A stretch of DNA of 64,000 nucleotides from Lytechinus pictus (Eukaryota), in NCBI RefSeq assembly GCF_037042905.1, contig NC_087245.1:23748001-23812000 (forward strand), written 5' to 3'. Shown in pieces: positions 38,401 to 64,000 of the stretch. The number at the start of each line of letters is the position of its first letter. Positions within the stretch are counted from its first letter, which is position 1. Below the pieces are notes generated by a model. That model was not told the origin of the DNA. It searched no databases and saw only the letters and a program-made list of their open reading frames with translations. Made by a program: the position numbers and the translations under genes.

Positions 38401-39799
38401 TTGTTATTATAGTGTATTATGCTGGCAATGGCAAGCGACAATACCTGAACACTGGTCTGACAACAACCGTCAATTGGGGACGGCGTGTGTTGACAGAAGA
38501 GGCAGACTTAGTTACTGCACATGGTGAGTTATACTGTTATGTCATCAACATAACTATGCACTTCTATGATTGATTTATCATACACTGTATTTTATAGAGG
38601 ACAGAATAACTCATTGAATGAGTCACTGTTAATTGGGAGTCATTGCATTCGATTTTAGTACATGTATGTATGATATACACTTTCTATCTAAACTCTGGAC
38701 TGTTTCAATCGAAGCACCCCCTTTTCAAGAAAATTGTGAAAATCAATGATTAATTATTGGATTCTGTCTTATAATCAAAATACATTTATTGGCAATAGAA
38801 ATTGATTAGATCAGTATTCGACATGTGTACAACAGTATAAAGCATATGGTTTCAAAAAAATGAAAACTCGTCCACTCACCACATGGTCTACCTTCATTTA
38901 TTCTAATACCATTCCGTCCATCAACATTTCGTCTAAAAACCATTAGGTCCAATCATCACTTTGTCTAATCACCATTTCATCTAATAACCAGTTGGTCCAA
39001 TAACCATTTTTCTTTTCATTCATTTTGTACAATTAACACTTTAGTTTAATTAGACCAAATGGTACATTAGACGAAATGAAAGTAGACCATGTGGTGAGTG
39101 GACGAACTGATGATAGAGCAAATGGTATTAGACGATTTGGCAATTGGACGAATTGGCACTAGACGAATTGGAAATCAACCTTTCACCCTTTGCTGTATAA
39201 TTGTGTAATTGAACCACAGACTATTATCATTAGGGCAGCTTCCACAACTATCATCTTATATAATCTATACTTACATGTATTTCCAATTTGTACCATATTT
39301 TCTGGAAATGAAGTGCATATTTTTTTGTCAGGAAAACATCCTGAAAAGAGCTGTGTAGTTAATGCATAGATAGAGAGGTATATTATCTTTTGTTTATTAA
39401 TGTACATTTTTCCCTGATGGATCTTCTTTTTTCAGTCAAGTTGGGATCACGGTTATTACATGACCACTGTGTTCTCCAGAAAATGTAGTAGGTGTTTACT
39501 TAAATATGCAGTTGAAAGCCTCTTTATATTGCTTGTTTGGTTGCTCTCCCACAGAGTTGGGTCACAATTTTGGCAGTGAGCATGATCCGGGTGATGAGGG
39601 CGACGAATGCGCCCCTGGTAACTCCCAGGGTGGCAACTTCCTCATGTACCCTGCATCCGTCACCGGTTCTTACGAAAACAACAGGGTGAGTTCTTTAAAG
39701 AGTCTTTGTAGAAGTAATTGTAATGGCAATTATGATGGTGACATGGTGATGTTGATGGAGATGATGATGATGATGATGATGGTGATGATGGTGTGATGA

Positions 39800-39831
<32 letters not shown>

Positions 39832-45800: not shown

Positions 45801-48800
45801 TGTTTTTCATTGTTTTTTTCAATGGAAATTATTACAACCATTCAACAACTAAATAAAACCCTAAATTAATTAAGCAGACCAATTAGAATAAAAAAGTAAT
45901 CACCCTTTTATGAATTTCATCTCCCATAGACTTTGTACATTAAGTATAAAAATGAGCCATTTTTGGCATAACATTGTCTCATAAAAAGTCATGTGGTGTT
46001 GCGATGTTATACCCGTACGTCGCGAATTTGGTCTCAAAAGTTGCGGGAGACTTCAAATAAAAAAGTCATATAATTTTGCGGCGCTATCTTTTCGCATTCT
46101 GGGAATATCGTGCAAAGCATTGAGGGGGGCCATGATGGCCCCCAGTCCTTTTAGAGTTTACTTACACTATAATACATGTATGATTCAATATATATATCTT
46201 ATTAACACTATCTAGAGGCCCCCCCCCTCAACGATTCACGCAATATTTTTGCCGCGCGAAATTTTTTTACTGGCCGCTCGCTGACTTCTTATTTTCAAGT
46301 CTTGCGCAACTTTTGAGACCAATTTTGCGTCACCCGGGTACGTGGTTCCGGAATTATGCAACATTATGTAAGTGCATGTCAGACCAAAAATTGCTCAAAA
46401 ACATGAATTTGTATACAAAGTCAATGCAAATTGTGTTTTCAACCAAAAATCATAAATGTATGATTATTTTTAGTTTTGCTGGTCTAAATTTTTTTATTTT
46501 ATGCTTTTTATGATCTCTGAAGAGTCCCCAACAAATTTCATTGAAAGAACAATGAGAAACAACAGGTCAAAAAACAATGAAATACATAAGAAATTGCAAA
46601 AAACAATATAATACATAAGAAAATGATTTGATATCGCAATTTTGTTCATGTAAACTTGCTAAGAATACCACAAAGAGTTTCTATACCCAAAATTAGAACA
46701 TTTGGAGCTTTATTTAGGGAGTTGTGGGGAAAAGTATAATTTTGCATACTAATTATGCATAATCACTTAATAGTAATTCGCATGAAATAAATTACTATAC
46801 AATTTGTAGATTATGTCCCAGACAACCCGCGTGCCAATTTTCCGCGCGGTCGACGGCCGAGATCTTAGGGGGGCCTGGGAGGCCCCATCGGCCATATGAA
46901 CTCCCAAAATACCCGGCCTACATGTAGGGTTAAAAGACAAGTCCACCCCAACAAAAATTTGATTTGAATTAAAAGAGAAAAGTATAACAGGCATAACAAT
47001 AATTTCATCAAAATCAGATTTACAATAAATAAGTTGTGACATGTTTAAATTTTGTTTAATTTCACAAAACAGTTGTATGCTCATCCTGGTTGTTATGCAA
47101 ATGAGGTGATAGATGATGTCACTCACTCTCTATTTCTTTTGTCTTTTATTGTATAAAATATTCAATTTTTACCTCTTTGTCCTGTGCAACAAAGTTTTAT
47201 TATTCCCTGAACAAAATAACATTTTATGGTTTGGTCAAATTGGTATTTTTTGTCAAATCTGTAAAAATTGAAAAATTGTAAAATTCAAACAATAAAAACA
47301 CAAAAGAAATAGTGATAGAGGAACATCATCGACTCTCTCATTGGCATGTAACTGTAATGTGCATATAACTGTTTTGTGGAAAACAAGTGAAATTTTAGAA
47401 TATCATAACTTTCTCAATTTACATCTGATTATGAAGAAATTTTGAGTGTTATGTTTGTTTGATTTTTTAAATTGAATCAGATCAACATTTCAAATAAGAC
47501 TAGAGCTGAGTTTATATTCTTGGCCCACTTAAGAAGGTCCTTTCCATGAAAGTTGTCACCAATAACAAGCTCTCATTCTTTGACTGTTACAAGGGCAACA
47601 GTGTATCTCTATCCGACAAAATCAAGTTAAATATAATTTTATTGTAGATATTATTGAGTGACTGCTTTCCAGTTGATGAAAATCTGTGTGTAACCTGGCT
47701 TGGATGATTGTTTATATTCTGATGATCTTTGTAGGTTTGCATGGTGGAGTTTATAACTTGGAGAAGGTTTACGGTTCATCATGTGTAATATGAAGAAGGG
47801 AAAGGAAAGTGTAATATGAAGAAGGGAAAGGAAACACAGGCAGAAAATTGAAATGGAAAGACGAGAAAGGATGAAAAGAGGAAATTAGAGGTATTCTTTT
47901 CTTGAAAGTGAGTGAAGTCCTGAAAAGGACTGTAAACCAGATGAGATGGGCTGAATATGGCTTGAGTAGCGATGATTTGAGCAGTAGCACTGCTCGCTAC
48001 TCAAGCCATATTCAGCCCATCTCCTCTGGTTTACAGTCCTTTTCAGGACTTCACTCACTTTCAAGAAAAGAATACCTCTAATTTCATCCTTTCTCGTCTT
48101 TCCATTTCGATTTTCTGCCTGTATTTCCTTTCCCTTCTTTGTATTACACACGGTGAATCGTAAACCTTCTCCATGTTTCTATTCTGTTGTAATACTTCTC
48201 TTCTCCCCTTCCAGTGGTACATGTATTGGAGGTGAATGTAGGGCATTCTGTGAGGTCAATGGTTTCAGGTCCTGTATCTGCTCTTCATGTGAGTATTCAT
48301 TTAAGAGTCACCCACAATTGGTGATATGAAAGATGATTTATTCCCTGAGAGTATTCCTCTTTGTTTTTGATAATGGAGCAAAAACTGAAACATTCTTTGG
48401 TAATTCTATAATTTGGTGGGTACATGTGTATTTGTTGTAGTATTGTCCACACATGTCCACATGGCCAGTGTAACATGTATCATTCTTTTGTGAATTATGC
48501 CAAGACTTGAATATGCCACAACTTTCTTCTTCTTTTTTTTTTACAGCCGCCTCAGAGGAATTTCAGTTCTGTTTTTTTTTTTTTTTTTGCTGTTATTTTT
48601 CAAAAAAGCAAGTTAATGATGCGTACTTAGTCTTCAGAAAGCCTTTTCAACTGATCGTATACTCTGGCCAATGATATAATTTGACAACTGGCTGTCAATA
48701 GTAGTGTCACAGCCATACCAACAAAAACGACTCCAGATTGATAAAAAATATTAATAATAATTATGACAATTTGCAACATTCATATAGCGTCTAATATAAA

Positions 48801-51800
48801 TGTTTCTATTAAAGCGTTGTATACTATTACCTTGGCTTTATCATGGCTACCCTAATCGAATGCTCGAGCATTCAAAGAATTCCTTCCTACCGGGTTCCCA
48901 TTTACTACACCTGGGTGTAGAGTGGCAAATGTAGATAAATGCCTTGCCAAAGGATGCTAGTGCTGTGTTGGGATTTGAAGTTCGATTCTGGTTTATTGCC
49001 CGAGACGCTTACAACTGTTTTGTTGTTGTTGTTTTTCTGTGTGCAGTGGATCTCTCTTGTTACTTCTGCTGTGTGTTTGAGCCAAACGGGGCATGCTTGC
49101 CCTTCAAGGACCGCTACACTGATCTGCCCGTACCCGTGCCAGATGGTAAACCATGCGAAGCGGGCAGCTGCATACAGGTACAGTAGTATTTATTCAATCA
49201 ACCTCTCACTATGGCATTCATTTCAGTATCAGGATAATTAGCTATGGCATTCAGTTCAGTATAAGGGTGAAGTCAAAATTTCACTTGCCAAGGGATTCAT
49301 ATGCCTGATTCACAAAGCTGGATTTGAACATTTGACTCTTGAATAAAATGTAGGGTGCTCAACCATGACAATGGGCGTCAATGTGGCGCACTGTGACAGA
49401 AGCGTGCATCAGCATTGGATTTTTTTTTATAAGCGGTAAATTAAGCGTTATTGATGCATGAAATCTGCACAAACCATGGGTTCACTAGACAGTTTACAAA
49501 ACCACCATTTTGGAGTTTTCATTCATTCAGTTCAAGATTTGTTCACTTAGATGAAACAATGTAAGCCCCCACTCATACTGATGTTGATCATGGGATGAGC
49601 AATAAATCATTGTTTGGCAAGTAAAAGGGCAATATGACACGATCAATTGCAAAAAAACGATACCAAATTATGAAATACTCTATCAGAAATTTTTTTTAAT
49701 TTTATTTTTATGCCCCCTTAGACGAAGTCCGGAGGGGGCATTAAGCGTTGCCCCTTTCCTTTCGTTCGTCCATCCCCCCACTTGGTTTCCACGCAATAAC
49801 TCGAAAAATATTTAATGTATTTAAAAAAAATTTGGTGTGTAGGTAGATGACACCAAAATACAGGCTAAGTTCGAATTCGGAGTCCACAGGTCAAAGGTCA
49901 CAGCTCATTAAATATGCGAGTTGGTTTCCGCATGATAACTTATGAAATATTCACCAGATATTAAAAATGGTTGGTGTCTGGGTAGATGACACCAAAATAC
50001 GGGCTAAGTTTGAAATCTGAGCCCACAGGTCAAAGGTCACAGCTCATGCTGCAAGTAGCTGTATTTAAAAAATAGATAAGACAGCAAGACCACATTTCCA
50101 ATTGACACAATGAAGTGAGGGATTATCCACATCAAATGACCTGACTGTCATACATGTATCTTCTTTCAGATATTATTATGGAAAGGGTGAGTCTTTAGGT
50201 CAAAGGTCTAAATTTGTTCATTATATATATATGCATATTGGTTTCTGCAAGATATTAAGTTCAATCATATTGCAGGAATTTCTGATCGTGTTAAGCTGGG
50301 GCATCTGTGTCCTTTTGGAAACACGTCAAATTTCTAGTTTTTGTCTCGCCTGCATAGCAGAGGGAGACTATAGGCGCCGCTTTTTTGACGGCGATGGCGG
50401 CGGCGTCGTCAACATTGAAATCTTAACCAAGGTTAAGTTTTTGAAATATCATCATAACTTAGAAAGTATATGGAACTAGTTCATGAAACTTGGACATAAG
50501 GGTAATCAAGTATTACTAAACATCCTGCCTGAGTTTCAGGTCACATGACCAAGGTCAAAGGTCATTTAGGGTCAATGAACTTAGACCATGTTGGGGGAAT
50601 CAATATCGAAATCTTAACCAAGGTTAACTTTTTCAGATGTCTTCATAACTTCGGCAGTATATGGACCTAGTTCATGAAACTTACACATAAGGGTGATAGT
50701 GTATCATTGAAGATCCTGCCTAAGTTTCAGGTCATATGACAAAGTCTTGCGCAACTTTTGAGACCAATTTTGTGTCACCCAGGTACGTGGTTCTGAAATT
50801 ACGCAACATTAGATAAGTGCATGTCAGACCAGAAATTGCTGGGTCTCGGTATTTTGGGAGTTCATATGGCCAATACTTATTACGCATAAATTAGCATAAT
50901 CACTTAATAGCAATTCACATGAAACAAATTACTATACAATTTTGTAGATTATGTCCCAGACAATTCGCGTTCCAATTTTTGGCACGATCAAACTGAAAAT
51001 CACCCAATGTGACTATCTGTAGGGTTTCTGGTGCCTGGTCACATTTGTTACATGTATTTCTGTGTATATTACATGCAGCCTGAATTTGTTTTTTATGAGG
51101 GGGGGGGGGTTAAAGTGATTTATTTATTTTTGCTGAAAAGGGAATCTAACCCAAGTGGAAGGCTTTTAAATTTTTTTTTTTTTAAATCAAATCAGAGAAG
51201 CAGATTGATGAAATTTGAACAGAAATCAGACAAATGAAAATTGTACAAAGTTTTAATCTCTACATGTATATCTATTGAGATTTCAAATTGTCAACATCAA
51301 TGATGTCATTGTGTAGAATTGGGGGCAATTCCTCTATTTGCTCCAGGTACACAAAATGACAAATACCTTTTCAAACTTTCACCCACAGTGATAGTTTATT
51401 TTTATAAGGAAATGTAGTAAAAGAAACCCCCAAATTTGTGATAAGTACATGTATGTACATGACAAGCTGGGGGATTCATAAATGCCGCCTTTCACTTGAT
51501 TGCCAAATTGAAATGTACAGAATAGTGATGTTATCATTCATAACTTTTTTTACTCATTGTCCAATTTCTTTCAAGCTTTCACTTTTGAATACTCTAATTT
51601 TCTTTTCCTTTGGACATTCCTCCAAGACCCCTAGGGAGGTGTCTTGACTTAAAGTCCACCCCCAACAAAAAGTTGATTTTAATCTAAAGAGAAAAATCCA
51701 ACAAGCATAACACTGAAAATTTCATTAAAAATCATGACATTTTAAAGTTTCGCTTAATTTCACAAAACAGTTATATGCACATCCTGGTTGGTATGCAAAT

Positions 51801-53330
51801 GAGGGAGCTGATGACATCACTCACTCAATATTTTTTTATTTTATTATATGAAATTTGAACGTTATTATTTAAATACTCCACATTGTCCTGTGAATCAAAG
51901 TTTTATTTCTCCCTGAACATATGGAATTACCATTGTTTAACATTTTATGGTTCAATGAAGTTGGTCCTTATTGTCAATATGTAAAAAAATGAAATATTGT
52001 ATAATTCAAACAATAAAGAACGAAAGAACTAGTGAGTGAGGGATATCATCGATTCTCCAATTTGCATGTGACTAAATTGTGCAAACAAGTTTTTTGTGAA
52101 AAATAAGCAAAACTTATTTCATAACTTTGTTTATTTTTTACATCCGAATTTCTTGAAATTTTCAGCATTATGCTTATTTGATTTTCTCTATTGATTCGAA
52201 TCAACTTTTTTCTGAGGTTGACTTGACCTGTAAGGATAGAATATTGAGCCAAAATTTTGAATTCTACTCAGTGAAAATCATTGTAAAATACTCAATATCA
52301 GCCAAGAGGCCTTTCAAAAGATTCACATGTTTTAAGTGTTATTTGTAGTACATGTATAGCAGTAGTTCATGTAGGTGGGAAAATTCTTGCTCCTATTCAA
52401 TTGCATGGTACATGTATATTACCAGTGGTATTAACATTGAGAATGAAATAGGCATTTCCTGATAATAGACTCCTAAAAAACAAGCTTTGCTTATAACCAA
52501 ATGCCATAACTGTAACTGTTTTTGTCGCAGGGCCTTTGTGAGAGTCAGACGCAGGATCTTATTGCAAGATTCTTTGATGTCTTTGAAGGTTTCACTATCA
52601 GCACAATGGGTGAGGCATTATTTTTATTGTAAATTCATAAGATTGTGTTATGATGAATAAGATGTTTATAAAGATTTGCGATTGACCCGATAACCACAAC
52701 TATGAAAATCCAGCAACGCCAACATCTAAAACACATATTGGTCCAAAATGTTTTCTAGATAAGGTGCGTGCTCTTACATTCATCATTGTTTTGACAATTC
52801 AATATGCTTTCTCTTACAGGGGACACTGCAAATTTCTTAAAGGAAAAATTGTGAAAATTATGAAATTATGAAAAATTATGGCAATGATGGATTTCCATAT
52901 AGTTGAGATTGATCAAATCAATCGCAACACTTTGTGAGACAAGCCCCAGGTTTCTAATTGTGATCAGGTATTTGACAAACTAGCCAGCTAAATATTTCAT
53001 GGAAAAAGGCACCGATCAGTCTTCACTCATCTTGTCCTCGCCTTGCTGTATACTTTACATACTGGTATAAGAACTGGAACAAACTTCCTCTGACATGACT
53101 AAAATCTCTTTTTATATGTTACATTTTAACTAAATAAATCAATGTTCATAATTGTGACTGGATAAGAAACTGAATTCTGTTTTGTAAAGACATGTTGGAT
53201 GCCATGATCAATACCGTGCATATTATCTTTACACCCCATAGGTCGTATCATCAAAGACAATGTTGTAGGAGCCACTCTGATTATTTCCCTTCTTATATGG
53301 ATTCCTTGCAGCTGTTTAGTACACTATGTG
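13844..53330 (+). CDS. ADAM17: ADAM17/TACE disintegrin-metalloprotease, 19 exons (684 codons) from signal peptide to TM; cytoplasmic tail not found in window
   Basis: All exons are phase-consistent with GT-AG ends. Motifs: signal peptide, prodomain, RQKR furin site, [39 protein letters not shown], Met-turn FLMYP, disintegrin [29 protein letters not shown] (CANDIS-like), [25 protein letters not shown] (ADAM17-type TM). Confidence 0.95.
14546..15207. mobile_element. Mutator-like non-autonomous element
   Basis: TIRs ACTAGTATG..TCCAAACTTCGCGC / GCGCGAAGTTTGGA..CATACTAGT, with 9-bp TSD ATAACTAGT on both sides. Confidence 0.7.
15750..18007. mobile_element. ~2.3-kb foldback (long inverted repeat) element with (ATT/ATC)n microsatellite in the arms
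   Basis: 15750-16420 is the reverse complement of about 17570-18007; 16770-16870 is the reverse complement of 17245-17345. Confidence 0.8.
18020..19080. mobile_element. Diverged, interrupted relative of the 14546-15207 element
   Basis: Colinear matches (atcggcaaattt, ggcgaaa.ccctt, caccccatcatact); interrupted from about 18530 by a GGGGCGGTATTCTGAAA element. Confidence 0.6.
19394..20406. mobile_element. P-element-like MITE
   Basis: TIR CAAGGCTC(C/G)ACATTA, 7-bp TSD CTTACTA, subterminal GGTGGCCC motifs; inverted copy at 41507-42169. Confidence 0.8.
21208..21929. mobile_element. piggyBac-like MITE (TTAA-CCCT...AGGG-TTAA)
   Basis: ttaa|ccctaaaag...cttttaggg|ttaa; relatives at 24394, 45436, 46206, 50745. 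Confidence 0.8.
21945..22817. mobile_element. TTAA-flanked (Kolobok-like) MITE containing a nested MITE at 22151-22462
   Basis: caagtccatccca...tggggtggacttg TIRs; nested ttaa|agataaatg...catttatct|ttaa; relatives at 46930 and 51648. Confidence 0.75.
23070..25956 (+). mobile_element. Interrupted copy of the Helentron-satellite family (monomers 23070-23660; 3' end 25770-25956)
   Basis: Same monomer (aggtcacatgaccaaggtcaaaggtcattt) and 3' end tgcaggcgagactgccagag..ccactagtt. Confidence 0.7.
24394..25361. mobile_element. piggyBac-like MITE with a small insertion (24424-24608)
   Basis: ttaa|cccta...ttaggg; the insertion has TAGTCT/AGACTA ends and two units ending GAGTCTGCATAGCAGACTA. Confidence 0.72.
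26983..27112 (+). CDS. ADAM17: ADAM17 exon 2 (prodomain [11 protein letters not shown]...MLGR)
   Basis: ttaacag acceptor, gtaatt donor. Confidence 0.88.
28945..30200 (+). mobile_element. 5'-truncated Penelope-like retroelement (GIY-YIG endonuclease C-terminus plus 3' region)
   Basis: [34 protein letters not shown] matches the PLE endonuclease C-terminal pattern; followed by a hammerhead motif. Confidence 0.8.
30087..30125 (+). ncRNA. Minimal type I hammerhead ribozyme-like motif (PLE type), core variant CCGACGA
   Basis: Stem I GCCT/AGGC, core CCGACGA-A, stem II GATTCT/AGGATC, GAAA, palindromic AAGCTT. Confidence 0.65.
30418..30551 (+). CDS. ADAM17: ADAM17 exon 3 ([13 protein letters not shown]...YYMGYLE)
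   Basis: atcag acceptor, gtgaaa donor; prodomain. Confidence 0.9.
31005..31093 (+). CDS. ADAM17: ADAM17 exon 4 ([10 protein letters not shown]...EEQYTIE)
   Basis: tgtag acceptor, gtaatg donor; prodomain. Confidence 0.9.
31098..31297 (+). repeat. (GGAT)n microsatellite
   Basis: Seen directly, starting just after the exon 4 donor. Confidence 0.95.
31625..31704 (+). CDS. ADAM17: ADAM17 exon 5 ([26 protein letters not shown])
   Basis: ttcacag acceptor, gtaagt donor. Confidence 0.9.
32259..32356 (+). CDS. ADAM17: ADAM17 exon 6 ([13 protein letters not shown]..., cysteine-switch region)
   Basis: caccag acceptor, gtaagg donor; phases fit both neighbours. Confidence 0.8.
32868..33007 (+). CDS. 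ADAM17: ADAM17 exon 7 ([29 protein letters not shown]...NYL)
   Basis: Furin site and start of the catalytic domain; ttatcag acceptor, gtgagt donor. Confidence 0.92.
33451..33537 (+). CDS. ADAM17: ADAM17 exon 8 ([29 protein letters not shown])
   Basis: tatcag acceptor, gtaaat donor. Confidence 0.9.
34603..34695 (+). CDS. ADAM17: ADAM17 exon 9 (IVIHQHP...PWGVQELLE)
   Basis: gaag acceptor, gtgact donor. Confidence 0.85.
34874..35448. repeat. Near-perfect palindrome around a MITE built of 15-bp tandem units
   Basis: 34874-35110 is the reverse complement of 35215-35448; units like ACCATTTGGTCCAAT. Confidence 0.85.
35818..36391. mobile_element. Unclassified element: terminal hairpin plus IR-flanked segment
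   Basis: Hairpin 35818-35970; IR attagacatctagagc / gctcagatgtctgat. Confidence 0.55.
36412..36547 (+). CDS. ADAM17: ADAM17 exon 10 ([32 protein letters not shown]...GGICTS)
   Basis: ttgcag acceptor, gtgagt donor; conserved catalytic-domain motif. Confidence 0.95.
37428..38221. mobile_element. Harbinger-like MITE (GGG..TTCTGAAAATTGTCT TIRs)
   Basis: ttctgaaaattgtct / agacaattttcagaa termini, CTG flanks. Confidence 0.6.
38413..38523 (+). CDS. ADAM17: ADAM17 exon 11 ([27 protein letters not shown])
   Basis: ttatag acceptor, gtgagt donor. Confidence 0.95.
38865..39180. mobile_element. Second 15-bp-unit MITE (partial)
   Basis: Same units as 34946-35376 in inverted arms. Confidence 0.7.
39555..39685 (+). 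CDS. ADAM17: ADAM17 exon 12 ([11 protein letters not shown]...[16 protein letters not shown])
   Basis: Zinc-binding motif and Met-turn; ccacag acceptor, gtgagt donor. Confidence 0.96.
39730..40040 (+). repeat. (ATG/GTG)n trinucleotide microsatellite
   Basis: Seen directly. Confidence 0.95.
40432..40501 (+). CDS. ADAM17: ADAM17 exon 13 ([23 protein letters not shown])
   Basis: tatcag acceptor, gtgtgt donor. Confidence 0.92.
41036..41171 (+). CDS. ADAM17: ADAM17 exon 14 (disintegrin start [13 protein letters not shown])
   Basis: ctgtag acceptor, gtatgc donor. Confidence 0.94.
41261..41382 (+). mobile_element. Truncated SINE family B
   Basis: Close match to 1449-1570. Confidence 0.8.
41507..42169. 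mobile_element. P-element-like MITE, internally deleted inverted copy of 19394-20406
   Basis: CAAGGCTC TIRs, 7-bp TSD CATATGG. Confidence 0.82.
42570..43745. mobile_element. MITE with GGGTGGTATTC termini hosting a LINE fragment
   Basis: ggggtggtattctgag...ttggaataccaccc. Confidence 0.55.
42800..43165 (-). mobile_element. LINE (L2/CR1 group) ORF2 C-terminus and 3' tail
   Basis: [21 protein letters not shown] resembles the GDRAFSVAGPxLWNxLP end of L2-type ORF2; tail gcgctttataaat. Confidence 0.7.
43747..44561. mobile_element. MITE (GGGGTGTTTCACAAAG TIRs) with a nested TTAA-flanked palindromic MITE at 43936-44527
   Basis: Outer TIRs; inner ttaa|aggagaatgaaac...gtttcattctcct|ttaa. Confidence 0.8.
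44963..45133 (+). CDS. ADAM17: ADAM17 exon 15 ([10 protein letters not shown]...DGTRCID)
   Basis: atgtag acceptor, gtaagt donor; disintegrin cysteines. Confidence 0.94.
45436..46929. mobile_element. Two adjacent, oppositely oriented piggyBac-like MITEs (about 45436-46157 and 46206-46929)
   Basis: Similarity to 21208-21929 and 24394-25361; TTAA-CCCT / AGGG-TTAA ends. Confidence 0.7.
46930..47490. mobile_element. Kolobok-like MITE (family of 21945)
   Basis: ttaaaagacaagtccaccccaacaaaaa start. Confidence 0.7.
47759..48172. repeat. ~410-bp near-perfect hairpin/foldback element
   Basis: Arms of about 200 bp are reverse complements, with a tiny loop. Confidence 0.85.
48215..48288 (+). CDS. ADAM17: ADAM17 exon 16 ([24 protein letters not shown])
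   Basis: ttccag acceptor, gtgagt donor. Confidence 0.92.
48780..49010 (-). mobile_element. SINE family A-related copy, antisense
   Basis: cctaccgggttcccattta..cacctgggtgtagagtggcaaa..gccttgccaaagga. Confidence 0.7.
49047..49177 (+). CDS. ADAM17: ADAM17 exon 17 (DLSCYFCC...[12 protein letters not shown]; membrane-proximal domain)
   Basis: gtgcag acceptor, gtacag donor. Confidence 0.92.
49705..50338 (+). mobile_element. Second Helentron/HINE-type family
   Basis: T-run then ATGCCCC..GGGGCAT short IR, TTCG/TCCA microsatellite, two ~140-bp tandem units, 3' GGGGCAT plus GTGT..ACAC stem, CTAGTT end. Confidence 0.65.
50339..50745 (+). mobile_element. 5' part of the Helentron-satellite family (as 4568)
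   Basis: Close match to 4568-4960; truncated by a piggyBac-like fragment at 50745-50990. Confidence 0.8.
51648..52233. mobile_element. Kolobok-like MITE (family of 21945)
   Basis: aagtccaccccc...gacttgacctgtaa. Confidence 0.72.
52531..52609 (+). CDS. ADAM17: ADAM17 exon 18 ([26 protein letters not shown])
   Basis: tcgcag acceptor, gtgagg donor; CANDIS-like stalk. Confidence 0.92.
53242..53330 (+). CDS. ADAM17: ADAM17 exon 19 (transmembrane segment)
   Basis: ccatag acceptor, gtgagt donor; [29 protein letters not shown]. Confidence 0.93.
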
Positions 53331-54807: not shown

Positions 54808-55283
54808 GACAAACAAGATTAGACTAAGTTGAACATTCAAAGGAAGCCAGTGTAGTATAAAATTTAAGAGTGGTTGGGAAGGATTGATGATCTAGGGAAA
54901 CCTGTGAAATTAATTGTGCTGCCACATTTTGTATTCGTCGAATTAAAAATTTATTAACTGATATGCTAATATCTGCAGTGACTACGTCATTCTTCTACTT
55001 TAATGGCTGGTACATACATGTAGGTTTATAGTAAATTTGTTTTCCCAGCTTCATTCTCATGTGTAAAGACCACTCACAATATCTTTATTAACATCAGTGA
55101 TAAAGAAAGAAAAGCATTATGTACAAATCTACCATAATAATCAACAAACTGATATTAGCAACATTTTAATCTGTTTCTGTTGCCTTCTGAAAACCATTTA
55201 TCGCAGTACAAGCCTATGGTATAACAGATTTCATTTATAGTCAAAGGGATAAGCTATACACATTTCAAATTGCACTCTGTGTG

Positions 55284-58200
55284 TTAAATACAGTAAATGA
55301 ATGCCAACATCGATACAAACAATACATGACATGACTTACTAATAACATTTGAAGTAGGCATACTTGAAGTTAAAATATTATTAGTACCACATTGAAGTGT
55401 ATCTTTCCATTCTTTGGCTAATATTGTAGTACTAGTATTAGAACTGTCTTCCACATTCTCTTCCATTTCCTCTACAAGTAAATCTATAGTGAATTTTGTT
55501 TGCCCACCTTCATTCTTACTCCAACAGGTGTAAAGACCAATCATATCCTTAGTAACGTAACTGATTAGAAGTGCATTATGGGGAAGGATAGAAATTGCTT
55601 CTGGTAGGGTGTCTCTTACAGTGTTTAGTTGTTCCCCTTGAAATGTGACTGACCAGTAAATGTCATTTGATGTTATTATTGGGCAAGGTAACTCAACCAT
55701 TTTGTCACCAAGGAATGAAAGAAGAGTTTGGTAGGGCTGAGAGCACAGCAGTGGTCGGCAGGTGAAGCTGTTCTTGGCAGCAAGATCAACCACTGAATAG
55801 TTGGCATAAGCTAAAGGTTTGTCACATTTTATGGGGGTGAGTGTGTGTTTCAGAGCGAAAATAGATTTGATGAGGTCACAATTACATGTCCAAGGATTAT
55901 TTTCTAATTCAATTTGGATGCTTTTCAAAGTGAAGGTCAGTAAGCCGAGATCAAGCTTTGTAAGTTGGTTGCCTTGAAGGTAAAGATGAGTCAAGTATGT
56001 CTGATGCCGTAATGAGCCAAATTCAAAGAACAGTATAAGGTTATAACTTAAATCTAGAAACCAGAATTGATTATGCTTGTCAAATGAATCCATTAAGATC
56101 AATTTTAGTTTATTTTGAGACAGATAGAGACTGTATGCTTTGTTACTTCTTGGCAGACAGTATTTTGGGATGGTAGTAATGGCATTGTTTGACAAATCAA
56201 GAACGTTTACAGTGTTTATTAACACATTTTGACAGTGGTCCCCAAGGTTGATAGAAGAGAGATTTAAGAACCATAGATCTGAGAATTCCAAAATGGTTCC
56301 TACACTATTACTTGTGTTTCTCACAAAGTGCGCACGAAAAGCCAAATTTTCATTGAGTTCCAAGTAGAGTAAATTTGGAGTATCTTGAAATATGCTCAAG
56401 GATGTGTTTGAAAAGGGTGTAGAAGGAAACAATATGCCCTCTATATCCTGACCTTCTGAAAACAGGTGATTTGAAATGCGTGTTAAAGGATTTTCACCTA
56501 AATATATAAATTTCAAATCCAGAATGTCTGAGAAAAGACCAGAACGAAGGTATGTTATGCGATTCCTTTCCAGCTTCAATTGGAAAATTGTTCTTAAACC
56601 AATGAATGCTGTAGGATATATATCAGCTATGTCATTATCGTTCAAATCTAGAAATATCAGTGAGGATGCTGATGTGAAAGTGAAATTTGGTATGGAGACA
56701 ATATGATTCTTATTCAGGTATAGTCCCACCAAATTGGGAGAAATTTTGATGTTTTTGAAATCAGTCAAGTTGTTGTTGCATGCAAATATATTGGTTCCTG
56801 ATAGCTCACTTGAATTTGAAGCTCCAAAGGCATTATTATTAACGTTTATATGAAGAGCTGAAGTAGAAACAACATCAGTGATTCTGTTGCCCTCTGCATT
56901 GATATAAACGAGTGTTCTGTCACCAAAGAGGTGATTCAAGTTAAAATGATATAAAAGATTGTGACTGATATCAAGGCTTTGGAGGGATTGCAAGTTGCGT
57001 ATATTAATCTCCATGAATAAATTAAATGACAAGTCCAAAGTTCTGAGATGGATTAGAGTCAAGAAGTCTGGAGAGTTGATGGTTCTGAGTCTGTTATGGC
57101 TTATATACAGCTTCTCAAGTGAATAAATGGAATGAAGGAATCTAAGATCAGAAATTTTATTTTTGGCCAGGTTTAATACAGCTAGTCTTGGTGAAGAGTC
57201 AAATGTTGAGTTTTCTATAGTGTGAATTATGTTTTCTGATAATTGGAGATTTACAAGTTCAGGAAAAGTTGGAAGGTTTGATAATATTGATATTCTGTTT
57301 TTATCGAGCGCGAGTTCACGAAGTTGAGGAAGGCAAATCAGGGTTTTGTTATCCAAAAATGTGATAGAGTTTGAAGACAGTTGCAGCCACTTTAGGTTTA
57401 GCAAATTTCCAAACTTTTTCATGTTCTTAATTCGATTAGAATTCAAATTAATGTATTGTAGGTGATGACTATCAATGCCAAAGTCAACATCTTTTATTTT
57501 ATTGAATGAAGCACATAGAAAATAAAGGTTAGGAAAGGATGAGATGGAAATTTTTTGCAGGTCATTCCTATCAACATTAAGAATTCTTAATTTTGTGTAA
57601 TTCCCTCCTTCAAATAATTCAAATCTTGTCAGGCTGTTTTTTCGAAGGAGAAGACTTTGTGGTGTACTAAAGAAAGATTGTGATAATTGAATAATTTCAT
57701 TGCCCTTTAAATTGATTGTATCTATGTTTGGAATGTTAGAAAAGGCAGGTCTTTGCACAACTCTTATATTGTTTTCTTCCAAAAATATGTGCCTGATGTA
57801 CATCATATTACAGAAGGAAGAGATGTCTACAATGTTGTTGTGCCCGAGTTTGATTGTGTCTAGCAAAGGGACACTTAAGAATACATTGTCACTGATGCGT
57901 CTTATGTAGTTGAATTCAAGCGTAAGTATCTTCAGGCTTTTCATCGTTTGCAGTCTATCCAAATATTCAATATTGTTGTAGTTAATGTTCAGATGTGATA
58001 TGGCATTTGGATACGCCAACATCATTGTGTGAAGGTCATTGATAGCATTTCCATTCAAATTCAAAATTGATAATTTGAATGGAATTTTTGGTAGACTTGT
58101 GAGTTTATTGTATGCCAGTTCAAGTTCTGTAAGGTGTGTTGTATTCTGAAGTGTTTGATGATGCCACTCTGTCAGAGAGTTCTGCATGACAGATATTTGT

Positions 58201-58574
58201 AGAATGATGGGTAACGAACCAAGATATGGAATGCTCTGAAGGAAGTTAGAGTGAAGTTCTATGAGCATAAGTTCTCCTGCATTATCAAAGACTTGCTTCT
58301 CGATGTAGTGTAGATGGTTATGGGACAGAAGAAGTTCCCTCAACCTGTTTTGGCATGAGAATGACCCTCTGTTTAGCGTGGAGATGAAGTTCCTGCGCAA
58401 GTTAAGTACACCAACATGACATGGGAGATCCTTTGGAACATCTTCTAGATAGCGGTCTGTACATGTCATTCTAAAATTCACACCCTGCTGCTCACAGTGA
58501 CACGGATCCTGACATTGTGAATTACAGCCCCTTCCATAAACAGTGACTAGTAGTAGGAATATGAAGATATTCAT
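55284..58574 (-). CDS. Single-coding-exon LRR + Ig-domain cell-surface protein, probably GPI-anchored (about 1096 aa from the likely ATG at 58574; ORF is open to 58637)
   Basis: Signal peptide MNIFIFLLLVTVYGRGCNS, LRRNT (CQDPCHC..TC..VPKDLP), roughly 30 LxLxxNxI repeats, LRRCT (NPWTCNC..KCDKP..FTC), Ig domain (VELPC..IYW..LLI..DMIGLYTC..NEGG), S/T-rich stalk, hydrophobic C-terminus ending at the stop. Confidence 0.93.
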   Translation of the reverse strand: MNIFIFLLLVTVYGRGCNSQCQDPCHCEQQGVNFRMTCTDRYLEDVPKDLPCHVGVLNLRRNFISTLNRGSFSCQNRLRELLLSHNHLHYIEKQVFDNAGELMLIELHSNFLQSIPYLGSLPIILQISVMQNSLTEWHHQTLQNTTHLTELELAYNKLTSLPKIPFKLSILNLNGNAINDLHTMMLAYPNAISHLNINYNNIEYLDRLQTMKSLKILTLEFNYIRRISDNVFLSVPLLDTIKLGHNNIVDISSFCNMMYIRHIFLEENNIRVVQRPAFSNIPNIDTINLKGNEIIQLSQSFFSTPQSLLLRKNSLTRFELFEGGNYTKLRILNVDRNDLQKISISSFPNLYFLCASFNKIKDVDFGIDSHHLQYINLNSNRIKNMKKFGNLLNLKWLQLSSNSITFLDNKTLICLPQLRELALDKNRISILSNLPTFPELVNLQLSENIIHTIENSTFDSSPRLAVLNLAKNKISDLRFLHSIYSLEKLYISHNRLRTINSPDFLTLIHLRTLDLSFNLFMEINIRNLQSLQSLDISHNLLYHFNLNHLFGDRTLVYINAEGNRITDVVSTSALHINVNNNAFGASNSSELSGTNIFACNNNLTDFKNIKISPNLVGLYLNKNHIVSIPNFTFTSASSLIFLDLNDNDIADIYPTAFIGLRTIFQLKLERNRITYLRSGLFSDILDLKFIYLGENPLTRISNHLFSEGQDIEGILFPSTPFSNTSLSIFQDTPNLLYLELNENLAFRAHFVRNTSNSVGTILEFSDLWFLNLSSINLGDHCQNVLINTVNVLDLSNNAITTIPKYCLPRSNKAYSLYLSQNKLKLILMDSFDKHNQFWFLDLSYNLILFFEFGSLRHQTYLTHLYLQGNQLTKLDLGLLTFTLKSIQIELENNPWTCNCDLIKSIFALKHTLTPIKCDKPLAYANYSVVDLAAKNSFTCRPLLCSQPYQTLLSFLGDKMVELPCPIITSNDIYWSVTFQGEQLNTVRDTLPEAISILPHNALLISYVTKDMIGLYTCWSKNEGGQTKFTIDLLVEEMEENVEDSSNTSTTILAKEWKDTLQCGTNNILTSSMPTSNVISKSCHVLFVSMLAFIYCI

Positions 58575-60175
58575 TGTTGTTCTGAGAGAAGGAATTTCCA
58601 GATGGAAAAACATGTCAATGAAAGATTTGCATTTCATAGGGATCGTCTTCTTTCTCCTGTGGAAATGATTGAGTCAAGCACACAATTATCAACAAATGGT
58701 AATCCAACAGTCTTCACTTTCTTGAAATATTGTATTACTCTTATTTTTCAATGAAGAGCACTGCTTATGGGTAAGACATGCGTACATCATATGCATTATC
58801 AAGAGAATACCAGTGAGAGAATACTGAGACTAATAATAGTGAATGTGACTTATATAGTGCCAGATCCACTCTGTAGAGAGCTGTAAGTGTATGAAGAAAT
58901 TATAAGGTGAACAGAAAAGTTGTAAGAACACTTTTAAAGGACTCGACACATACAATTTTCATGTGCATACAAAAAGAATATTAAAGCAAATGATAGTGAT
59001 TAGAGCAAGCAAAAATTAGACAACAAACAGAGCTCTATTGGAGGTCATCCAGTAGGCGTTAAGACCCAACCAAAAAATAAATAGTAATAATGATCATTAT
59101 AAAAATGAGGAAAATGATACTTCTCTCTTTAAGGTTGTAATTAGCTCTGGGAACGAGTAATCCAGAATTTATGCCTCTAGCATTTCAAAGTATTAATTTT
59201 TTAATTGCAGAAGATGAATGCTTTTTAGTATATTGATTGAATGTTCTTCCGCAAAAATGCATTGTGAATAATAATAATAATTGGCTTTAACATCACGCTT
59301 TATGAATCTACAATTGCTCAAAGCGCTTCTCAATTACAAAGCCTGCTTTAATGTACGTATGTATGATAAATACTCATCAGGATTTGATACAAAAATGACA
59401 TCGGCGGGTAATTAATTTAATTAAATTTCTTTTGCTTGGAGGGAATTCTGATTACCATTAGAGCATGATCGGTTCATCACGGATGGACATTTGATCGATT
59501 TTCAAATTTTGAAGGCTTGTAACAAATTAAGAATAAGATGAGCAAGGTTTGTTTGTGTATTATAGTGAAAGGTACTAGGACAAAGTATACTGCATGATTA
59601 AAAAAGTAGGTTGCCATGGTTACCTACAAACACAAGGATCCACTAAACGTTCCTTTTCACAAGATGAAAATAGTGTTTTAAAATTTGTTGTACATTTCTA
59701 TTGTTTCTATCTAAACAACTTAACATTGACTAACAATTGTTGATGCAAATATAACACTCCTGTCTCTTTAATAGCTTTTATGTCAAGCATATTGAATTCT
59801 AAACCAATATCTAACTTCTGAGAGAATCGCAAATATTTTTCATCATGGATGGACATCACGGACGGACACAGTTAACCCACATCAGGAGGACCTTGTAAGA
59901 AGTTCTTGTTATTTTTTTGGAGGAGGTGAACAAATGCTAAATTTGATGAATTGTACATTTCTGAATATGATTGAACAGTGTTGGTTGCACAATCAAGTTG
60001 CTGCAAGTTGAACCAACTTGATTGAAATGGTAGCATGCTAGACTTTTATCTCAACTTATGATTGCTTTAAGCACAAAATCAAATGTTCTAATGTTCATTG
60101 TTTTATTTTCAGATTATAGACGTGGTACCATGTACATGTACATGAAGCTGATCAATGATGTACGGTACATGTTAA

Positions 60176-60582
60176 GGCCACCACACACCTTACGACTGTT
60201 CGTGATCCGATTTTGGAACAAATCGCAATTTGCTCATTTTCTGAAAGTGTGAATGGAACATATCATTTTATTTGAGGTTAAAATTAATTGAAAGAATACT
60301 ACCATTTTGAAAGATTGCAAGCCTTTATTTTGGAGTAAAGGTCAAATTAGTTTCAAATCGTAGCCAATCGTACGACTGCTATGACGTCATTACGACTAGA
60401 TATTAAATTCGCTTTTATTCTAAGAAGGATGATAGCATAGTCACAGATTTGAACATAGGTATTTGTACAATGATTTAGAACATTACACAGTAATATATTC
60501 CAAGTCTCAATATTAGCATCAAATTCTACTACATTTTATTCTGAAATCGAGTCGCAGACCAATCGTAAGGTGTGCGGTCGCC
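60176..60582. mobile_element. MITE with GGCCACCGCACACCTTACGA-type TIRs, TTAA-flanked
   Basis: ggccaccacacaccttacga...tcgtaaggtgtgcggtcgcc. Confidence 0.8.
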
Positions 60583-60626
60583 TTAACATGTTCATGAATC
60601 ATAATATCTCATGATCAAATATGTTA

Positions 60627-61572
60627 TAGTAGAGTGGATAAGCAGAACAATTGTGCAAATTATGACTTAAGCATGAAACTTTCACAAGTATTAGTATATG
60701 CCGTAAGATTTATTTTAAAGATGGGAGGTAAATTTTTAAATGCTATTTTTGGCTGTTGCCATGGCAACGGATTAATTTCTCCAAAATAACATACATTCCC
60801 ATGTAAATGGTAAATAAAAATGATATAGATGACCAAAATGATAATTTTCAGGCTCCCATTTGAAAACATGAAATTTAGAAATATTCAAGATCACCAAGAT
60901 AGTTCCAATTGGTCTGTTGCCATGGCAACGGCTTGTTTTTCCCCAGAAAAATAAAAAAATTGATTAAAAAACCGTTGTAGAATATGATTTATCTTTAATT
61001 TCCCCTAATTCTACAATGTTAAAGATATTTTGGTTGCTAAATGTGTAAATTACATCTCAAGCCATTGCCATGGCAACCAAATAACATCTAATTTACAAAA
61101 ATAACATGGTTGACAAGACAATGGACAGGTGGAAAATACAGTTAGAATTGACTTAATCTGTATGCTTAAGTTTTGACCCCCTCATTTGAACAAAAAATAC
61201 AGAAGTGTTCTGCAGGAGTTCTTTATAAAGGTAAAAAAATATGTTGCCTTGGTAATGCTTGAATTTTTAGTTATTTATATATATATATTGGAGCTATCTT
61301 GGTGATCTTGAATATGTATTCAATTGGGAGCCTGAAAATCATCATTTTGGTCATCTATATCATGTTTATTTACCATTTACATGGGAATGTATGTAATTTT
61401 GGAGAAATTAATCCGTTGCCATGGCAACGGCCGAAAATGGCATTTAAAAATTTACCTCCCATCTTTAAAATAAATCTTACGGCATATACATGTACTTATA
61501 CTTGTGAAAGTTTCATGCTTTAGTCAAAATTTGCACAATTGTTGTGATTTTTGGAGCTTATCCGCTCTACTA
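60627..61572. mobile_element. Long-TIR (~280 bp) non-autonomous DNA element
   Basis: 60627-60905 is the reverse complement of about 61290-61572; repeated GTTGCCATGGCAAC palindromes. Confidence 0.82.
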
Positions 61573-63380
61573 TTAATACATGTACTAGGCGTTAATTTTC
61601 CAAGAACAAATTTGCCTTAAAGTCTGTTGATCTATCTTTTTTTTTCTGCCTCAGGAATATAAAAAAAAAAAAATTAAAAGGTTGCTGATTCCCGATTCTT
61701 GTTTGGTAGATCAAGTATGGCCACAACATTTTGTCAGAGGCTCTCTTGAATATCCCTCTTTTGCCCACTTGTAATGGAGACACCATAACACCAACAGCAG
61801 TCATGTATGTAGACCCTGACCGGACCCAAAATTGTAATTGATAAAATCATATACCAATCAAAGTCTTATTAAACTTCTTAACACAGCAATGCAAGCTTTA
61901 TATATTTTCACTGTTTACTAGCTGAGCAATTTGCCTAAAATTAGCTCCAATTACTGGGCTTCAGAAAAAGGCAACCTTGAATTAAGGAAATCTACAGCTT
62001 TGGAGCAGTTTTTGCCCTATAATATTTTATTTCCTTCTGTTTTGGGATAGCTTTCAAATTCTATCTGCATTCAGATTTTGGGTAACAACTTTTCCTGTCA
62101 TTTGTAATTCAGGCCCAATAATAGCCAGATGAAGATATATATAAAAAAAAAAAAACTTTGTGAAGAGTTGTAGCTTTCCATCCGTTTGAGTACTGAATAA
62201 TTGTCAGTGCCATTGTCTGCTGCAAATTGAAAAAATTAAATTCATAATCTGGAATTTTTTTTTTACGTACGAACCTATGGAAGCACAACCCTCCTGAAAA
62301 CGACATGTCACAAAATTTAGGCCATTAAAAAAACTTGATACAGCCTACTGCCAAAACTTGTTATTTTGAGTTTTTCATCGCCAAAATACTCAGCTTTCAA
62401 GTGGTGAATACACAGAAATTGTGCAAATTCATAGATGTGCATTATCCCACTTCAAGCAAAAGACAAGATAAAATTAATGACAGGGTCTAGCAGTCCGAAA
62501 TTTTGTCATTTGTTTTATTATCATTATATATCGATACCATGCTGACTGTGTGTCAAGCACACAGTGATATTGTTATATTGTTGTATTAGTTTTACTCATC
62601 ATCCATGGCTATTTTCAAAAATATTGTTTTTGCTCCAAGTAGTTAGGCCCTACAATATAATTCCTCTTTTTAACCTTTTCTCTCTTTTTTTCTCTGCGAA
62701 ATCCTTCTCAACTTCCTACCACTCTGTGTCGTGTAGTGTCAGTTGAAGATACTGTACGCCCCGTATTTCCTTGGGTCTTCCTGTTGATAAGAGGGGCCCC
62801 CACTCAGAACTAACTGTGAATTTGATAGGTTTGTCTGTGAAAAGATGGGCAGGAACATGCACAGATATGACGGAGAAAAAAACATTCTTCAGAATAGTGA
62901 TTTATGACAATCATAGTAGTGTCACATCTTTGAAAGAAATGAGCGAATTTATGACAAAAGTTACAACGGCTTTCCAGAATACCACACCTGGTGGTCTGAT
63001 ATCCACTTGGTCTACTGATTATGGTATATTGCACTACAGCAAATGAAGAAAGAACAGATCTATAAGCATTTCTTGTAGAACTGCTGGTGTTACACCTCTA
63101 GAGTGGATATTAGGCAAATTGGGTGTTGCCAACTAATGTACCAGTTACTAAAATGTGAAAAGAAGGTCACCAACCAACTGGATTGCTCTAGTTGTCACAT
63201 GCAGGCAGGGTCAAGCAGTTACACCAAGTGCATATGCAGGGGGGGGGGGCTTAAGGGTGCGCTCTCCCCCCCCCCCCCCACGTAAAAGTCCAACTCTTGA
63301 TCCACGCCTGCACACTGTACTTAAAAACTCTTGAGCCTGTTATTTTTTCAGTGCTTTATTGACAAACAAGATTAGACTAA

Positions 63381-64000
63381 GGCTGCGTTTATGCGACCTC
63401 AAGCCAGAATCATGATTTGAATCATGATTTGAATCATGATTCAAAACACAAACATGAATCACAATATCACAGAATCAGCGTTTAGACGACCGTCATTCCA
63501 ATGCTGTTTCTCCTCAGATTCGGGCCAATCCAGTGCGCATCACTAGTGCGCAGTTTGACAGAGGAAGTTTTTCGCACGTGTTTCGGCTCTCGAAAAATCT
63601 TTTGCTTCCAGAATTCAACCTAATTTTGTTTACTTCTATCATATAAGGTCCATATGCTTCTATCCAAAATGGTGTTCGGAAGTGAATTTCAGCGTAGATC
63701 CAATTTAATATTGACACTCTATACTCATCATTGTCTCCAGTTAATTCATTTACTAGAACTTGAAGTTGAAGACATGACCAAAAAATGAAAAGTAGTGGAC
63801 GATGCGAAGACCAACACAGAACTTGAACATGACAAGAAATGCATGCAGAGTAATCATGTACATACAATGAGCATAAGCTTGGCAAGAGTCAAACCGAAAG
63901 CCGTAGCCCGACGACACAGTGAGGTCATATAATCATGATTCAAATCACGATATCGTTTATTCGAACATTTTCGTACGTGATTCTGCAGAAACGTCTTTCC
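63381..64000. mobile_element. Harbinger-like element (TAA|GGCTGCGTTT), running off the window
   Basis: Begins exactly where homology with 54828 stops; GAATCATGATT subterminal repeats at both ends. Confidence 0.65.

Follow-up and report, generated by a model that had tools for sequence, protein, structure and literature searches.

We analysed a 64,000-nucleotide stretch of the Lytechinus pictus genome (NCBI RefSeq assembly GCF_037042905.1, contig NC_087245.1, here C1, positions 23,748,001 to 23,812,000), called the window below, which carries on its minus strand a gene for a large protein built of leucine-rich repeats (LRRs) and one immunoglobulin (Ig) domain. The gene is real and intact; RefSeq already lists it and its relatives one at a time, under automatic names that mislead. 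A sequence-only reading had described it as an LRR-Ig receptor with a probable glycosylphosphatidylinositol (GPI) anchor; we find that it belongs to a tandem trio, the copies of which are 95-97% identical, within an expanded sea-urchin family whose members are gained and lost, and whose concave LRR face changes faster than the rest of the array. The parts of the gene are as follows.

55284..58574, minus strand: intact LRR-Ig gene in a single open reading frame (ORF), 1096 aa (1117 aa with the ATG at 58637), from the ORF and the RefSeq model
58518..58574, minus strand: probable signal peptide, residues 1-19, hydrophobic core 3-13, from hydropathy and similar N-termini in intact paralogues
58416..58517, minus strand: LRRNT cap; all 22 aligned proteins share C21, C25, C27 and C38
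55923..58415, minus strand: about 36 extracellular-type LRRs, residues 54-884
55749..55922, minus strand: LRRCT cap
55470..55748, minus strand: one I-set-like Ig domain; C964, W974, Y1015 and C1017 invariant
55386..55469, minus strand: stalk, with the family motif W-x(3-5)-C-G at its end
55287..55385, minus strand: C-terminal 33 aa, an S/T/N-rich spacer and 15 hydrophobic residues up to the stop, candidate GPI signal
55334..55339, minus strand: donor-like GTAAGT just before the hydrophobic end, from consensus; RefSeq model P0002 (a tandem copy) exits the ORF there

Gene model and protein layout

The minus-strand ORF covers 55284-58637 and encodes 1117 aa from its first ATG or 1096 aa from the ATG at 58574, the latter being favoured because it has an A at -3 and because the C4 copy and the third tandem copy have no upstream in-frame ATG. 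No other stop-free frame longer than 200 aa is present in the window, and 1096 stop-free codons would be expected by chance at about 1e-35 at the window's composition. RefSeq model P0017 of the window copy is the same single 1117-aa ORF, tail included, and the uninterrupted frame of about 1100 aa described from the sequence alone is therefore upheld. Its description as single-exon holds for the coding sequence of the window gene; an acceptor-like TTTCCACAG lies immediately 5' of the first ATG, and an exon in the 5' untranslated region is therefore possible.

LRR models are the sole Pfam matches for the whole protein (LRR_8, E 7e-72). The array had been put at roughly 30 repeats; the count is slightly higher, at 33 by a strict pattern and 36 when assigned by hand, with irregular repeats around residues 573-610 and 711-790. 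The window copy of the Ig domain falls under the Pfam cut-off (I-set E 0.023), and support for it comes from aligned relatives, in which Ig_3 is matched in 15 of 17 and I-set in 13 of 17, and from fold searches. Structure prediction, which the sequence-only reading had proposed as a check, gave a C-terminal AlphaFold model (pLDDT 72) that matches the LRR-Ig ectodomains of NGL1, SALM5, AMIGO1 and LINGO1, its Ig part aligning with single Ig domains at Z ~9 and a root-mean-square deviation of 2.3-3.0 over 87-89 residues. The full-length model (pLDDT 77) shows one unbroken LRR solenoid, in which confidence is low at 583-609, 920-957 and past 1037, and a whole-protein fold search returned generic long-LRR matches only (TLR13, TLR8, TOL-1; TM-score <=0.43). 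The S/T stalk is present and short, with 15 S or T residues in 46 aa. Two extra cysteines, C944 and C1062, co-occur in 19 of the 20 family rows printed (with the unrelated locus L044, described below, left out) and are both missing in the distant paralogue L042, which suggests a C944-C1062 disulfide. As first reported, no TIR or kinase domain is matched by Pfam in the protein, and none of 74 downstream minus-strand frames of at least 50 aa matches a signalling domain.

The protein ends, as had been seen, in a hydrophobic stretch that runs up to the stop (residues 1082-1096). Throughout the close family such a stretch lies 29-53 residues past W-x(3-5)-C-G, in Diadema too. The ratio of nonsynonymous to synonymous substitution rates (dN/dS) of the tail is 0.34-0.37 in two deeper L. 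pictus comparisons, made between subfamilies, and 0.82 against the C4 copy; the tail is thus under purifying selection in the deeper comparisons and is therefore coding. With a summed dG of +3.6, against about -3.6 in the transmembrane (TM) paralogues L042 and L043, the terminal stretch is, on sequence grounds, too weak for a confident TM helix. It fits a GPI signal, which makes anchoring plausible, and a survey of extracellular LRR (eLRR) proteins assigned GPI tails by hand on such terminal hydrophobic stretches. A GPI-anchored mature protein is, by a slight preference, the form we would expect; a secreted or peripheral one is possible but doubtful, and a tail-anchored one improbable. The GTAAGT donor lies 56 nt before the ORF end in the tandem trio and is present in 3 of the 13 intact copies of the genome. 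A secreted splice form of the trio may possibly arise from it; no contig from the reads examined bridged the candidate donor by >=31 letters.

An expanded family restricted, as far as traced, to sea urchins

A search of the L. pictus genome with the LRRCT and Ig parts gave 29 matches, 24 of them at >=48% identity, and a search with the N-terminal part gave 21, all at loci already known. Together these define at least 22 distinct close loci on 10 large contigs. In 13 of these loci the ORF is intact (1094-1120 aa), and the other 9 are disrupted by a stop, a frameshift or truncation. The counts, which are lower bounds, confirm the expansion suspected from the one gene. Matches on the small contigs C212 and C121 were left out of the count; these contigs repeat the loci at C18:9.06 Mb and on C11 with identical scores and are probably unplaced duplicates. 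Three of the loci make up the C1 trio, and an array on C18 contains six intact copies and one broken copy. The close subfamilies differ at a synonymous divergence (dS) of ~1.3, yet the 3.3-kb ORFs remain open in 13 copies.

Three distant paralogues, L042, L043 and L046, share ~24% identity with the window protein, are colinear with it over the whole length and are each a single ORF, but carry a true TM helix followed by 14-38 residues in which no signalling domain was seen. The earlier statement that a cytoplasmic tail is lacking stands for the window gene; these distant members may represent the ancestral state or partners of the tail-less proteins.

Another locus, L044, matched the genome search and was dropped from the family, together with its L. 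variegatus partner P0183, as its match to the family profile (58 bits) is not a colinear one; it served as a control. L044:4219-7680 (C5, ~54.9 Mb) encodes an unrelated single-ORF LRR-Ig protein of 1154 aa with ~30 LRRs and a GPI-like end, 95% identical to the L. variegatus protein, conserved and apparently single-copy. L045:4194-6146 (C14) encodes, in one ORF, an LRR-Ig-TM protein of 650 aa that has 13 LRRs, ends in a basic cytoplasmic tail and resembles the LINGO/LRRN types. The RefSeq/nr models P0009 and P0013 skip most LRRs or fuse adjacent tandem copies and are probably prediction artefacts of arrays.

Named relatives come from L. pictus, L. variegatus and Strongylocentrotus purpuratus, and colinear relatives also from Diadema antillarum, which belongs to a different order, and from three further ENA records (350-735 bits), within the range of 350-1282 bits at which true members score against the family profile. 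No members outside sea urchins were found among the matches looked up, in agreement with the proposed lineage specificity; these were 10 of the 150 listed profile matches, picked mainly for a long single-stretch alignment, and the restriction to sea urchins is for that reason of lower confidence. The sea star and hemichordate matches looked up are LRR-Ig-TM proteins, LINGO/LRRN-like, which align only partially, over the last 420 profile positions or fewer. In a tree built by a quick method, one separate clade unites the named S. purpuratus members, and those from Lytechinus split into several subfamilies, every one of which contains L. variegatus partners or recent duplicates in L. pictus. This pattern points to separate expansions in the two lineages.

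RefSeq spreads the members over at least six unrelated names, two of which are "toll-like receptor": "artichoke-like", "chaoptin-like", "toll-like receptor 3/6", "ALS" and "LRRC4C-like" are scattered inconsistently over one clade, and the names are not orthology. No published description of the family was found in the literature searched, nor any paper naming any of six family accession or locus ids, with prior cataloguing possible, for example in supplementary gene lists.

Genomic setting and copying of the gene

39554..39667, plus strand: ADAM17 catalytic-site exon (host gene), E 3e-11 to ADAM17 vs 2e-3 to ADAM10
53242..53330, plus strand: ADAM17 transmembrane exon, matching residues 667-694 of the 824-aa human protein
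55015..59709, minus strand: ~4.7-kb unit shared at 85.6% with the broken C20 copy
55218..63381, minus strand: unit of the tandem duplication; the next copy, which lies 10.6 kb away and outside the window, matches it at 98.2% identity over 8.2 kb

The window copy is not a lone gene; besides belonging to a tandem trio, it is probably nested in ADAM17. Window positions 39554-53330 (plus strand), probably together with G000:C1:23836888-23836941, represent an ADAM17/TACE orthologue, the spliced exons of which are supported by reads. No ADAM17 exon signal occurs between 54682 and 59821. The next-exon candidate (20 aa), the sole one in 58 kb, starts at G000:C1:23836888 on the plus strand, with none on the minus strand, and has a strong acceptor, a donor and a matching phase; the 20-aa sequence had no PDB match, PF16698 had no match in the window, and the assignment of the candidate rests on its splice sites, phase and uniqueness and on a likeness to the vertebrate ADAM17 exon. 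The LRR-Ig trio thus most likely lies antisense within a 35.6-kb ADAM17 intron (53330 to C1:23836887).

The C4 and C20 copies still match each other past the point where the window copy diverges, and the C1 site therefore looks derived. Retroposition of the young copies is not supported: the copies have 1.1 kb of 5' flanking sequence in common, and at the 3' boundary no poly(A) tract was seen. The tandem region contains no N, and one of its three copies could conceivably be an uncollapsed haplotype. A tblastn search of 111 kb around the trio found only three whole copies and no LRR cassette array. An inverted-repeat element at 60626-61573 is part of the duplicated unit.

Diversification of the concave face

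The variability of the concave face, which the sequence-only reading had suggested examining by dN/dS, is supported. The LRR core has a dN/dS of 0.09-0.16 in all four comparisons, and the concave exposed positions reach 1.13 for the trio and 0.63 for the array on C18. Variable codons also make up a greater part of the concave face than of the loops (p 0.04 for the trio, 0.006 for the trio with C4 and 0.004 for C18). Under site models M7 and M8, run in our own codon-model implementation and not in PAML, M8 was preferred for the four genes of C1 and C4 (p 5e-10, twice the log-likelihood difference [2dL] 42, ~3% of sites, omega ~13) and for the six C18 genes (p 6e-5, 2dL 19). Differences within the trio are patchy, silent changes included, which argues for exchange between copies, a process that can inflate site tests. 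The four-gene 2dL of 42 exceeds all 40 of 40 simulations under a mosaic null (maximum 15.9), and it stands at 28.7 once 17 multi-nucleotide codons are removed. The sequences thus support a small positively selected site class in C1 and C4, and more weakly in C18.

Pairs between L. pictus and L. variegatus differ by 10-13%, and their concave sites by 14-21%, against 4.9% and 5.6% for L044; the pace of divergence in the family between these two species is about double that of this unrelated single-copy gene. For sea-urchin Toll-like receptors (TLRs), pseudogenes and selection on concave LRR strands have been reported (PMC3367398).

Comparison with known LRR proteins

With a capped LRR array, an Ig domain and no other extracellular domain, the window protein falls within the LRR_Ig/FN3 (LIG) class, defined as LRR plus Ig or FN3 with no other extracellular domain, of whose 87 catalogued members 81 are type I TM proteins and 2 are GPI-linked (PMC2235866). 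It has the same LRRCT-Ig fold as the NGL/LRRC4, LINGO, AMIGO, SALM, LRIG and Kekkon proteins. NGL, LINGO, AMIGO, LRIG and Kekkon, however, are type I TM proteins with a cytoplasmic tail, a feature absent from the window protein and present only in L042, L043 and L046. Typical LIG proteins also have far fewer LRRs than ~36.

The nearest clusters in the Atlas, where likeness is judged by features only, are ISLR, LRIG and LINGO, with ISLR as the top neighbour (0.94-0.95). ISLR/Meflin consists of a signal peptide, LRRNT, 5 LRRs, LRRCT, one Ig and a GPI anchor (it is partly secreted), and its whole ORF lies in one exon (PMC4770287). It therefore has the same order of parts and the same one-exon ORF as the window gene, in which GPI is only a candidate, but differs in its 5 LRRs and ~430-460 aa, against ~36 LRRs and 1100 aa, and in not being a large birth-and-death family. 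The likeness is one of layout, no named ISLR being among the named relatives found. The domain combination (LRR, one Ig and GPI in a single-exon ORF) is thus already known, a precedent that the sequence-only reading had missed. The novelty lies in the number of repeats and in the expansion: a 36-repeat array on a LIG scaffold with immune-like family dynamics, in a family that is apparently undescribed. That the protein could not be placed in a named subfamily still holds, as it lacks the features of TLRs, of variable lymphocyte receptors (VLRs) and of TM-bearing LIG proteins.

The sea-urchin sccTLRs resemble the present family in their long single ORFs, expansion, pseudogenes and concave-strand selection as far as these are described, but they carry a TM-TIR region that the window protein lacks, and the window protein has an Ig domain. 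An origin from TLRs was rejected: all 10 fetched TLR ORFs, taken from the 33 TIR loci of this genome, reach <=77 bits against the family profile, each in a single stretch, and no TIR is found in the protein, downstream of it or nearby, none of the 33 TIR matches (a lower bound) lying near the family loci on C1 or C18.

Lamprey VLRB is a GPI-type LRR recognition protein and, like CD14 and amphioxus FrLRR, is tail-less; none of the three has an Ig domain. VLR diversity is somatic, whereas here the germline ORF is complete and no LRR cassettes occur within 111 kb. Chaoptin and artichoke of Drosophila, the sources of some of the RefSeq names, have very long extracellular LRR arrays, as the window protein does, and chaoptin is GPI-linked. 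Neither is known to have an Ig domain, which the window protein has; this comparison is one of described layouts. In the eLRR survey chaoptin is given as an adhesion molecule and CD14 as a GPI protein with 11 LRRs, and the predicted-GPI protein FrLRR promotes bacterial binding and phagocytosis (PMC10199209).

A model for function and its alternatives

We give about an even chance to the reading that the gene is functional and belongs to an old family of recognition proteins without signalling function, restricted to sea urchins, evolving by birth and death and probably serving innate immunity. The gains and losses of loci, the separate expansions, the variable concave face and the site-model signal favour this reading, as do the like pattern in sea-urchin TLRs and the role of FrLRR in amphioxus. 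In this model, the protein would enter the secretory pathway, and its marginally hydrophobic C-terminus would be exchanged for a GPI anchor, or the protein released. The 36-repeat solenoid would offer a very long concave beta-sheet for binding a variable non-self ligand, most likely microbial, with the Ig domain and stalk acting as a spacer and partner surface. Such a tail-less protein could work in capture, as an opsonin, as a decoy or as a co-receptor, with the signal passing through a separate transmembrane partner; CD14 serves TLR4 as a tail-less co-receptor. To make new copies, ~4.7-kb units would be copied at the DNA level into other sites and then duplicated in tandem, after which patchwise exchange between copies and selection would diversify the binding face.

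Several observations weigh against this model. Overall dN/dS is below 1 (0.28-0.64, with the trio at 0.64), and the concave nonsynonymous/synonymous contrast is significant in C18 only (p 0.013; trio 0.36, trio with C4 0.85). The C18 statistic of 19 lies near the top of the mosaic null, which was built for the four-gene set, five of the ten selected sites with the best support lie off the concave face, and the selection tests rest on 4 and 6 genes and on our own code. The concave excess is not significant in two of the four orthologue pairs (p 0.07 and 0.056). No clean omega-site motif is conserved, the tails of some members are weak, and those of S. purpuratus are weaker than that of the window copy, basic-tipped and a poor fit to a GPI signal. 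RNA runs X15 and X17, of tissue not known and with ~6% of each run read, cover the ORF at <=0.6x, with 2-8 reads at ADAM17 junctions. Runs X12 and X13, the kind of which is not known, cover it at 1-12x, the same as the unique non-coding flank (3-12x); such coverage agrees with intronic ADAM17 RNA or with DNA, and we do not count it as expression.

A role in adhesion, neural wiring or the matrix, like that of ISLR, chaoptin or artichoke, would give the family an endogenous partner and make its expansion one of cell-type diversification. This is an unlikely alternative, although the weightiest of the four considered here: most known LRR-Ig proteins have neural or developmental roles (PMC2235866), the C-terminal folds are nearest NGL, SALM, AMIGO and LINGO, the nearest Atlas clusters point the same way, and LRR-Ig proteins occur in the test and spine matrix of S. 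purpuratus (PMC2527298), their belonging to this family not being established. A fixed endogenous ligand should conserve the concave face, however, and here that face is more variable than the loops, a pattern that single-copy L044 lacks, while 9 of 22 loci are broken and the expansions are lineage-specific. It is less probable again that the expansion is a relaxed passenger, a compact intronless unit that copies easily and of which most copies are weakly constrained and rarely expressed. The near-zero RNA depth in two runs, the many broken copies, the trio's dN/dS and its patches of silent and replacement changes, and the presence of three nearly identical copies in a probable intron would all suit it; against it, 13 copies keep 3.3-kb ORFs open at a subfamily dS of ~1.3 with a core dN/dS of ~0.1, the layout is kept out to Diadema, and the signal of an omega above 1 persists under both controls, for mosaics and for multi-nucleotide codons.

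A surface protein for telling self from non-self between individuals or species, at gamete encounter, larval settlement or allorecognition, would account for the positive selection and lineage-specific turnover as well as immunity does, and gamete and allorecognition genes offer general precedent. The copies are nevertheless spread over 10 large contigs and not gathered at one polymorphic locus, and no expression data point to gonads, so that we regard this as very unlikely. Least probable of all is that a spliced receptor with downstream TM, TIR or kinase exons has this ORF as its large first exon, the tail being intron read-through. The GTAAGT donor of the trio could be so read, as could four RefSeq paralogue models (P0002, P0009, P0010 and P0034) that exit the ORF at or after the stalk, but these models add only 1-30 residues and no TM or TIR, the donor is confined to three intact copies, and the tail is under purifying selection and hydrophobic out to Diadema. 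The empty downstream frames, the lack of a TIR near the C1 and C18 loci and the tail retained in P0017 speak in the same direction.

Returning to immune recognition, we tentatively raise a more far-reaching form of it, namely that the family is an unrecognised innate arm of germline-encoded, GPI-linked or shed, "antibody-like" 36-LRR capture proteins with TM siblings and a splice switch, on a LIG scaffold and with some of the longest concave LRR surfaces known. L042, L043 and L046 would be possible partners, the donor of the trio could switch the product from anchored to secreted, and diversity would come from copying, patchwise gene conversion and positive selection. If true, invertebrate deuterostomes would have a counterpart to VLRB. 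Counts of the sea-urchin immune repertoire usually take in TLR, NLR, SRCR and Transformer genes (PMC13511894), and as the TLR surveys described are anchored on the TIR domain (PMC3367398), a TIR-less LRR-Ig family would be missed by them. Should the recognition role prove true, it would add a new receptor class in a genetically tractable urchin and a case of a neural-adhesion scaffold evolving like an immune receptor; should it prove false, there would still be a clean birth-and-death extracellular family, and a warning that urchin "TLR" labels in annotations and expression tables can be wrong.

Other features of the window

Long inverted repeats at 15747-18009, at 19394-20407 with 41506-42169, at 43919-44544 and at 60626-61573 have the character of non-autonomous DNA transposons. 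A dispersed family of ~160-bp tandem repeats is found at 4636-6086, 23058-23642 and 50337-50744; the very high RNA depth at 50056-51083, mostly on one strand, comes from copies elsewhere. A 200-codon stop-free frame at 34477-35079 (plus strand) has no Pfam match and overlaps a 16-bp tandem repeat.

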